NCBI RefSeq assembly: GCF_964194155.1 | Contig: NC_135898.1 | Location: 13,392,001 to 13,456,000 of the forward strand | From: Cetorhinus maximus | Lineage: Eukaryota | Direction of reading: 5' to 3' | Length of the DNA stretch: 64,000 nucleotides | Part shown: piece after piece, positions 5,830 through 8,800 of the stretch | Layout: each line of letters starts with the position of its first letter | Numbering within the stretch: position 1 is the first letter of the stretch | Program-made: the position numbers and the translations under genes | Notes under the pieces: model-generated | Database searches by the model: none | What the model was told of the DNA's origin: nothing | Seen by the model: the letters and a program-made list of their open reading frames with translations, nothing else

Positions 5830-8800
5830 ATGGCGGATGTCACTGCTCGGAGCCTGCAGTACGAGTACAAAGCGGTGAGTGAGGCCGGTGCCGGTGGGAT
5901 GTTTGCGCCGGGTTTGAAGCCGGGGGCTGGCTGGCTGGGGGAATTGGGTGCCGGTTCGCCCTGCCTGATCGAAATCGGGCGAGCAGGATGGTCGGGGTTC
6001 AACGAGAGTGCAGGGCTGAGGCCTGGTTTTGATGGGCTAAGGCTAGGCGTTGAGTTGGTGCTGAGGTTCGCTGGGAAATTTGGCGTGGATGCCTGTCCCA
6101 GTATACTCGCAAATGTCAACAAGGAAAGAACCGTGTTGTAATTGCGGGAAATCGAGTTGTATTTCCTGGAAGTTAGATGGTTAAGAGGTGATTTGATCCA
6201 CGTTTTGAAGATAATAAGGGGAACTGGCAGGGTCGGTGGAGAGAAACTATTTCTACTGGTTGAGGAGTCGAGGACTAAAAATTAGAGCCAGACCTTTCAG
6301 GAGTGAGGTTAGGAAGCACTTGTATACGCAAAGACTGATAGAAGTTTGGGACCCTCTGAAACAATTGATTGATCGGTTAATTTTAAACCTGAGATCGATA
6401 GATTTTTCTCACCCAAAGGCAGGTAGATTGGGTTACGTTTTGCTTTGCATATTAGATGTAAGGACGAGATTCATGAGGGGTCAAATTAAACATGGAGAGT
6501 TACAAAGAATTATTTATAAAGTCTATGTACTTTGGATTTGTAGTATTTTGTTTAAATTGTAAGAGAATTCAGGGCAAAAACAATTCTTGAAACCATCAAA
6601 AAGAACTTTCTCTCTTACTTGTAATCATTCTATTCTGGAATTCTCTCCCACAGGCCTTGTTGGTCCCCTACTTAAACATGCACAAAATTTGTACCCCATC
6701 CCCATCCAAAACAAAAACAAGCAGAAAATGCTGGAAAAACTCAGCAAATCTGAAAGCATCTGTGGCAAGAGAAACATAGTTGATATTTCGAGTCCGTATG
6801 ACCCTTCTTCATTGGGATTCAAAACGTTAGCTCTGTTTCTCTCTCCACAGATGCTGTCAGACCTGCTGAGTTTTTCCAGCATTTTCTGTTTTTGTTTCAG
6901 ATTTCCAGCATCTGCGGTATTTTGCTTTTATACGAAAACAAGCAGAATTGAGGCCATCTGGAGCCTTCAATTCTGTTTCTAAACGATGAATGTAGCTCCT
7001 TTTTGAAAATGCTAACTGACACTGAGCCACCTATCTTCTCCCAGCGTTTGTTTTATACATTCAGCAGCTTGGGAGGGGCTGAGGGCAAGTTTCGAATAAT
7101 TCCCAACTTTGCTCGAGGATTGTGAGTTTTGTGCAGCTTTATATATAAATGGAGTTGCTGATATTGGCTGCAGGTTTGTTTAACCTGCTGTACATCAAGA
7201 TAAAATTAGGTTTTTGCTTTAATTCCTTGTTTCTTATTGCAGAACTCCAACCTTGTATTGCAAGCAGATCGCTCACTGATCGATCGAACAAGGCGAGATG
7301 AACCCACAGGAGAAGTGCTGTCACTGGTTGGAAAGCTGGAAGGATCCCGAATGGGAGACAAAGCTCAGAGGACAAAACCACAGTTGCAGGAGGAGAGACG
7401 AGCAAAGTAAGGACAACATGTATTGCCAACATCACAGTTTATTTGGAATTAGGAACATTGTTATACCAATAATACAAAAACAAATACATCTTTATATGCT
7501 GAAAGCATTGATTCTGAATGGTAAAATGTATCAGATTAAATACTGGAAAATATACTGTGAGGATTGGTCAATCTGAATGACTGAAAATATTTTTGCTCAA
7601 AGAAATTCAATATTTTTAACGCTTTAAAAGTAAAGTTAGGAAACAACCAACTGAATTCTGAGTTTATTAAATTAATAATTACACCTTATCGATCCACCTT
7701 ACTCAGACACTACATTAAATGGGAGGAAAGAGCTGCCTTCGGCACATTCCATGCTTTACTGTAGGCAATAATATGAGCATCCACTAGCATTTGAATCGAG
7801 ACATTATGTCCTATCCACCACATTCCAGACATTGCACTTTGCTCCAAATGCAAAAGAATTTTGGAGGTTCAGAACAAAAAACAGGTTATCTGGTCATTCA
7901 TAGGATAGACAGATTTTTGGTGTCTCAAGGAATCAAGGGATTTGGGGAGCAGACAGGAAAGTGGAGCTAAGCCCACAATAACGACATGTTTCGGAAAGTT
8001 GTTTATTGGTTATCAGGTGCTCTGGGCACAATCTGAATGGCATGCTAAGATGCAGTATAAATACCACTTTTTCTTTATCTGGCATAACAGCTCTATTTAA
8101 ATAAAACTGCAATTACCTCTGTACAATGCCATGAGAAATCCATTAACAATAAATGTGGCGTAAAATTATGGGAGGTTTGCAGTTGAGCCTGGAAAATTTC
8201 AGTATTTTATAGCTTTCCATTTGGTGTGGAGGAGAGCATATCTAATCAGATTATTTGGCCAATTTGCCCTGCCCTGGAAGCTAGATGGTTTTCCACACAA
8301 TATATATTTGTGTTCTGGTTAAGTGTGGATTCCTGTTTTAATTCCTTTGCCTGTCGTTAAAATGTTTGAGTTCTTCGTCATGCAGGAGGAGAAAGCGTGA
8401 TGAAGACCGACATGACATGAATAAAATGAAAGGATATACATTGTTGTCAGAAGGTATTGACGAAATGGTTGGAATTGTGTACAAACCTAAAACGAAGGAG
8501 ACCAGAGAGACCTATGAGGTGCTGCTCAGCTTCATTCAGGCTGCACTTGGTGATCAGGTAAGAGTTTCCGGGAAATACACCGGAATACTGCCAAAAGCTA
8601 TTAATTTTATTATCCACTTAGTTTAGTCATTTTAAAATTGATTGCATCACACATGGCAGCAAATTATGCTAAGGGACTCACTCCTGTTCCTGTTGAGTAC
8701 ATCCTGGCATGCTCATTTTTCGGTACTTCTACTTGCATTCATTAGTCTTCCTTCAGGTTCTTTTGCTCTTTGTCTGATCTGTACCACATGCTTAAACAAA

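Follow-up and report, generated by a model that had tools for sequence, protein, structure and literature searches.

In the first coding intron of SNRNP200 of the shark Cetorhinus maximus, two pieces of a Penelope element stand head-to-head around what looks like a hammerhead ribozyme, and the question raised by this locus is whether such a fold-back is copied as a unit or assembled anew at each insertion. A preliminary description favored the former and proposed a separate non-autonomous, ribozyme-bounded family mobilized by the Penelope RT/GIY-YIG. Here we analyzed a window of 64,000 nucleotides that contains the locus, together with samples from the whole genome. Mobilization by the Penelope enzymes is upheld as most likely, the separate family did not survive, and we consider it probable that the fold-back represents the head-to-head pseudo-LTR (pLTR) leaders (the first 100–140 bases) of a Neptune-type Penelope, assembled at insertion.

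The fold-back in SNRNP200 and its neighbors

The host gene was named by a Pfam SNRNP200_wHTH match at two exons. Its first coding exon lies at 5830..5874 on the forward strand and is followed by the host intron at 5875-7242, in agreement with the intron 1 given earlier. An inverted-repeat search of the window returned the fold-back at 6709-6932, with inverted arms of 89 nt at 6713-6801 and 6809-6897 that are 81% complementary. Throughout we number the leader so that +1 is the base after the AG preceding the hammerhead and the A of that AG is -1. On this scale the left, short-ended arm (6722..6811, minus strand) begins at about +4 of the pLTR leader and stops at the first T-run end site (about +95 to +103), and the right, tail-ended arm (6809..6932, plus strand) spans +14 to +138 and has no catalytic CUGANGA core. 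The last 35 nt of the latter (6898..6932, plus strand) are the unpaired Penelope “tail” between the two end sites, and the arms meet at 6809..6811, three bases common to both. The copies of the target-site duplication (TSD) at 6711..6726 and 6932..6947 (plus strand) are identical at 15 of 16 bases, with 13 bp exact, and the final bases of the left copy also match the element (microhomology). The inversion described earlier stands, but its arms, given there as roughly 100 nt each, are unequal and measure about 90 and 124 nt with the 35-nt tail on the right. Window positions 6860-6905 of the sense arm (plus strand) present a pyrimidine tract and AG motifs in the host orientation, and the focal pair is predicted to make a 190-nt hairpin in the SNRNP200 pre-mRNA.

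Read by hand, positions 6778..6811 on the minus strand form a remnant of a minimal type-I hammerhead, and the minus-arm sequence quoted in the preliminary description is exact. The remnant keeps U4-A9, the extra A, stem II, GAAA, stem III and the 3′ strand of stem I; C3 and the 5′ stem I strand are missing from the left arm, and the CUGANGA core from the right arm. The hammerhead reading appears correct at the level of sequence, but the motif is incomplete in both arms, and a scan with Rfam returned no hammerhead family match at E<=1. The predicted cut falls after H17, at +33/+34. The minimal type-I hammerheads of PLEs are described as having one additional base after A9, ahead of stem II, and a stem III that is palindromic, and such ribozymes are found in fish Neptune, Poseidon and Xena with thousands of dispersed copies (Cervera and De la Pena, 2014, PMC4209133). 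The focal motif bears both of these marks; judged by its motif, the remnant seems to differ from these metazoan ribozymes in nothing of substance.

Several related loci are found in the window. The same architecture had been claimed near 24203 and 61008, and both sites proved to be fold-backs on the minus strand: 24201..24452, with a short filler at the junction, loop II ACACA in both arms and no TSD above threshold, and 61009..61226, with a private AA variant in both arms and a 13-bp TSD with one mismatch. A solo short-ended arm with a 12-bp TSD (one mismatch) lies at 19178..19264 (minus strand), as had been noticed. The supposed single arm at 45241 is indeed a tail-ended arm (45237..45392, minus strand; 12-bp TSD, one mismatch) that starts at the A opening stem I, but it is preceded by an inverted stub of about 15 nt and is therefore not plainly single. 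At 16290, called a probable fold-back, one decayed minus-strand arm is present (16289..16382; alignment score 50.5, against a null whose 95th percentile is 27.6 and whose 99th is 77, the null including true copies), but its right partner scores 18 and is unconfirmed. Two 5′-truncated Penelope copies, each of a sister subfamily, lie at 3721..5310 (plus strand; RT end, CX4CxxC linker, GIY-YIG, 3′UTR and pLTR) and at 49006..51190 (minus strand; RT and pLTR), with Pfam GIY-YIG above its cut-off and RVT_1 slightly below it (E 1.5e-6). Six loop II variants had been listed for the short loci, and two of them, CGA and AUUUA, belong instead to the ends of these ORF-bearing copies at about 5200 and 49100.

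Other features of the window were also recorded. An Rfam MIR5048 match at 24254 has E 1.6e-8, far under the gathering score. Many copies of sister subfamilies show hammerhead cores that are non-canonical at position 6 (CUGCUGA, CUGUUGA and CUGCCGA versus CUGANGA), for instance at 5196-5240 (plus strand) and 49070-49110 (minus strand) and at loci L034, L063 and L065. The segments 35236-37160, 48740-49147 and 51226-52224 we take to be CR1-like LINE RT fragments; the Penelope at 49006-51190 sits between two CR1-like pieces and may be nested in one. The WD40-like frames at 59798-60289 and about 54300-54900 (both minus strand) are presumably CIAO1-like and convergent with SNRNP200, and a low-complexity, purine/pyrimidine-skewed repeat of about 2.5 kb at 56100-58640 holds long open frames on both strands.

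Parent element, abundance and decay of the ribozyme

The arm is the pLTR leader of an ORF-bearing Penelope. One locus (L048) carries the ORF end, 3′UTR, hammerhead and same tail, and all 20 fetched loci with the focal stem II variant and three upstream T's run on into the 3′UTR; GIY-YIG coding sequence follows on the same strand in 8 of them and lies on the inverted arm in 2 more. In a sister subfamily the pLTR and tail stand before the ORF in 6 of 25 loci, the first ATG comes about 31 nt after the tail, and 707 codons are open from that ATG in L191; this ORF downstream of the tail was seen in that sister subfamily and not in the focal one. In Poseidon_Ac, by contrast, the ORF is reported in the relevant section to start inside the hammerhead (Frangieh et al., 2024, PMC11167929). 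Each of the 6 full-length copies has a 5′ pLTR whose start lies upstream of the A opening stem I (-8 to beyond -300), which calls for a jump or read-through. The CX4CxxC linker before the endonuclease occurs in the window at 4300-4836 and in L288 and L151 (a regular expression matched 2 of 8 loci tried, with the sequences read unrepaired), and CCHH is visible in the endonuclease frame of the window copy. According to the passages available of a recent review, a CX2-5CxxC linker before GIY-YIG together with CCHH in the endonuclease marks Neptune, and Nematis has the same linker (PMC8557442). Placed by these marks, of which the linker is also that of Nematis, the parent appears to be a Neptune-type Penelope. 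Eighteen RNA runs (guessed or recorded) contain 0.12-0.19 of the words; four of them, compared with a full-length copy, gave contigs only and no pile-ups of starts or ends, and are silent on expression and RNA ends.

That the short loci are Penelope-derived, non-coding and abundant, as first proposed, is borne out. One body 35-mer has 17,707 exact matches in 3.99 Gb and its reversed control none, and a DNA search of the genome gave 4,604 candidates; the 40 that were scored each cover almost all of the query. Of the features that the preliminary description had proposed to tabulate, copy number was estimated, and breakpoints and pair orientation were scored in samples of the genome; the pairs are head-to-head. 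Three samples were used. The census consists of 117 evenly placed 10-kb stretches (1.17 Mb, not a random draw) and holds 89 arms and 18 head-to-head pairs, 13 of these with both arms short, from which we extrapolate about 44,000 short fold-backs (Poisson range about 24,000-76,000). The pattern sample comprises the first 92 of 100 matches listed for the body 35-mer and does not select for architecture. The top-hit set comprises 29 pairs chosen by likeness to the query. Two loci, L016 and L026, have common flanks and represent one event duplicated.

The preserved pairing of stem II beside a freely varying loop II had been taken to suggest structural selection. In a tally of 79 arms of the focal group, non-CpG sites changed at 27/600 in the core (4.5%), 25/529 in stem II (4.7%) and 42/968 in the body (4.3%), versus 19/195 in loop II (9.7%), and CpG sites changed at 22-30% (G12 16/71, loop II 40/134, stem III 34/143). 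Structural selection was rejected on these counts, as core and stem II change at the rate of the body and the catalytic G12 decays as a CpG. A canonical core with at least 4 bp of stem II is kept in 22 of the 52 arms that span the core. The variation of loop II is mostly CpG decay, and its modest excess may come from differences among sources. These patterns of substitution point to a hammerhead motif that is kept in the source elements and decays neutrally in the inserted copies.

Ends, pairing and junctions of the arms

The 5′ ends of the 92 pattern arms are distributed as follows: 16 beyond -300, 11 at -300..-31, 4 at -30..-7, 41 at -6..+6, 13 at +7..+30, 4 at +31..+36 and 3 later. The preliminary description would be refuted by 5′ breakpoints spread at random along a longer Penelope, as in ordinary truncation products, and this is borne out in part: 27 of the 92 arms continue into 3′UTR or ORF, with 31 to more than 1,100 nt of parent sequence. 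The breakpoints are nevertheless non-random, with a sharp peak at the 5′ edge of the ribozyme (27/92 at -2..+2). The earlier statement that all 5′ ends lie at the ribozyme holds for that edge alone, about 35 nt upstream of the predicted cut, and 4 of 92 arms end near the cleavage site itself. Genome-wide exact counts with one upstream base added at a time are 3,548, 2,996, 2,478 and 1,321, and 1,076 with two bases more. The main stop immediately precedes A(-1), with which stem I begins; here the counts about halve (2,478 to 1,321). We take this A to lie in an initiator-like context. The palindromic AGCU was rejected as the sole cause of the boundary, as solo arms and AGUU subfamilies stop there too. 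Copies with the focal variant continue upstream in 277 of 1,201 cases (23%), versus 1,076 of 2,478 (43%) for the commoner variant; a partly non-autonomous source could lie behind this inequality.

The 3′ ends in the same sample are bimodal, with 39 at <=116, none at 117-126 and 53 at >=127, the two groups lying about 35 nt apart. Of 32 pairs, 31 consist of one short-ended and one tail-ended arm (p=8e-9 for a null of 0.5; the exception is L245), so that the 30-40-bp tail stands on one end only in 31/32. Which arm reaches further 5′ shows no supported bias among the 32 pairs (short-ended in 15, tail-ended in 12, ties in 5). Short arms make up 62 of the 92, and 31 of these 62 have an inverted partner. 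By eye, the same layout is found in pairs with long arms (L065, L096, L115, L123, L152, L158, L160, L161 and L169), while L120 has tails on both arms. In L044:839-2667 two Penelope ends stand tail-to-tail about 50 bp apart, the reverse of the usual layout.

A TSD of 10-19 bp was found for 32 of 61 short insertions versus 0.7 of 61 after shuffling (23/30 pairs and 9/31 singles); solo arms with TSDs stop at the same boundary as the fold-backs, and 22 of the 31 single arms have no TSD above threshold. Apparent single arms are often lopsided pairs. At L113:2773-2873, L076:1471-1563 and L053:9474-9514, the inverted arm is little beyond the tail itself.

All 32 junctions of the pattern pairs are distinct, or fall into 30 classes if +-3 nt is allowed. 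One junction type was seen by eye in about 9 of the 29 top hits, a set chosen for likeness, and on different subfamily backgrounds; at least three subfamilies show the same fold-back layout. Junction filler unrelated to the element was observed in L094:582-783 (about 200 nt) and in L274 (89 nt), and such long filler suggests capture of other templates during cDNA end joining. Partner arms are more alike than shuffled ones, with identities of 0.889 versus 0.815 in the census (20 of 21 pairs including the window; one dropped for short overlap), 0.905 versus 0.877 in the 29 top hits and 0.852 versus 0.799 in the pattern sample (23 of 32 pairs; nine dropped for short overlap). Within-pair minor alleles in common number 78 versus 23.6+-5.3 shuffled (20 census pairs), 50 versus 18.8+-3.8 (29 top hits) and 52 versus 22.2+-4.0 (23 pattern pairs), and in none of the three sets did any of 2,000 permutations reach the observed value. 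Later gene conversion could be a source of these shared variants. The focal copy has no minor allele common to its two arms, a few pairs (e.g., L029) are discordant at subfamily sites, and the nearest neighbor of an arm is its own partner in 4 of 20 census and 5 of 29 top-hit pairs. Alleles specific to left or right, or to long or short arms, were not found (best p=0.026 of 54 tests); one body column distinguishes short from long arms (p=0.0024 of 101 tests), a difference that is non-significant once corrected. Head-to-tail arrays of the short unit are absent among the 99 census and 92 pattern arms. It is very probable that the fold-backs are not a family copied as a unit.

Proposed assembly at insertion and its rivals

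To account for this layout we propose the following course of events. The endonuclease would cut the target with a stagger of about 10-19 bp, and both exposed 3′ ends would prime reverse transcription, one at the inner and the other at the outer start site. Copying on the 5′ pLTR of an RNA, which would be uncleaved (one RNA or two), would run off the 5′ end after about 105 or 140 nt, at a point that is probably the transcription start, and the two cDNA ends would then be joined through microhomology or filler. Long-armed versions of this layout would arise where the 3′ pLTR is primed or the copying jumps to it, and a single primed end would give a solo arm. Two-ended priming is fairly probable, and the transcription start appears to be an equally good candidate for the 5′ boundary. 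More tentatively, a dimer might prime both strands, one per start site, with short “strong-stop” cDNAs ending at the transcription start, the A of stem I. Fold-backs might then be two strong-stop cDNAs joined, solo pLTRs one, and partial tandems those that jumped to the 3′ pLTR.

Two classical systems resemble parts of this scheme. In L1 twin priming the second target strand primes on the RNA and the cDNAs join by microhomology, and retroviral minus-strand strong-stop DNA is a short first cDNA running to the RNA 5′ end. L1 inverts adjacent segments without duplication, whereas the fold-backs copy the same segment twice from two fixed starts.

Among Penelope elements, the sections at hand on a Poseidon PLE in vitro report that it cleaves and extends both strands, that two adjacent internal starts bracket the tail, and that the protein prefers uncleaved RNA and is a predicted dimer; no difference in start site was seen between the strands, and its clade differs from that of the focal element (PMC11167929). 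Head-to-head products and a fixed 5′ stop are not modeled in that text.

The main rivals to two-ended priming are snap-back and the collapse of longer insertions. It is rather unlikely that priming is one-ended, with a single cDNA snapping back, or that the boundary reflects splicing at an acceptor or pausing of the RT at the ribozyme. The variants common to partner arms would suit a snap-back, but each arm often has sequence absent from the other (a tail on one, extra 5′ sequence on the other). In the 15 of 32 pairs whose short-ended arm extends further 5′, neither arm can be a simple copy of the other. As for splicing, the boundary is preceded by a pyrimidine tract and AG, and the intron of D. 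virilis Penelope is described as ending at the 5′ end of helix I (PMC4209133); the counts, however, fall before the A and not after the AG, and by eye no exon is common to the 17 upstream 16-mers listed.

Collapse after insertion is unlikely. It supposes that the middle of a standard insertion (inverted pLTR, pLTR, ORF, pLTR with tail) was removed, either when its direct pLTRs recombined or through a deletion within a long palindrome, which left an inverted pLTR and a solo pLTR. The required starting layout is published in the excerpted account of Pen2a_Av (PMC3846280), and a single tail, a TSD and arms from one subfamily would all follow from collapse; deletions are likewise compatible with microhomology at junctions. 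Yet recombination would not be expected to yield a peak at -1, given that every one of the 6 full-length copies has its 5′ pLTR starting upstream of the A. Most long arms are truncated short of any 5′ pLTR. Solo arms with TSDs show the same boundary, and foreign filler, up to about 200 nt long, is present at some junctions (L094 and L274).

The retrozyme-like, ribozyme-bounded fold-back of the preliminary description, in which one transcript of the whole unit would be retrotransposed by Penelope enzymes, is very unlikely and largely refuted here: high copy number, the 62 short arms of 92, the junction recurring in the likeness-biased top hits, the single column that fails correction and a loop II varying at twice the non-CpG rate of the core would accord with it, but arm ends fall some 35 nt upstream of the cut, no two of the 32 unbiased junctions agree, the recurring junction is found on differing subfamily backgrounds, head-to-tail arrays and arm-specific alleles are absent from the arms surveyed, at least three subfamilies share the layout, and neither focal arm has a full core. 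A MITE/SINE-like element copied as a unit was likewise rejected on the distinct junctions and the lack of an arm-specific lineage. In the part of the account at hand, non-LTR retrozymes, one chondrichthyan included, are head-to-tail tandems with a complete ribozyme per unit (bioRxiv 10.64898/2026.07.22.740005). The fold-back is similarly non-coding, pLTR-related and provided with a type-I hammerhead motif, but it is a head-to-head pair with incomplete, decaying cores and is ruled out as a retrozyme, not being tandem and with 4/92 ends at +31..+36 versus 27/92 at -2..+2.

Published passages on EN+ PLE insertions describe adjacent inverted, 5′-truncated pLTRs with a 30-40-bp tail at one end and a TSD, as well as microhomology junctions and solo pLTRs (Pen2a_Av, PMC3846280; PMC8557442). 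All five traits recur in the focal type, whose layout is already on record. The commonest form in this genome differs in having no ORF between the repeats and in ends that peak at one base; the passages cited give no such end counts and leave the mechanism open, and the origin of the tandem and inverted PLE structures and of the tail is called unresolved in the review text (PMC8557442). The literature covered, mostly as listings and with subscription papers, supplements, Dfam and Repbase outside its scope, yielded no account of the family or of a two-ended model.

As an element the insertion is unremarkable, being a dead Penelope remnant within an intron, and its worth lies in the data. For annotation there is a risk, as remnants of this kind may be taken for MITEs, microRNA hairpins (the MIR5048 match) or ribozyme families. 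The pairing of long with short arms and the single-base 5′ boundary make two predictions that are testable in the existing in vitro system. It is likely that the sharp, asymmetric ends record the copying route of Penelope, and if the two-ended strong-stop reading is true, tens of thousands of stubs would preserve, base by base, the steps now missing from the PLE cycle.
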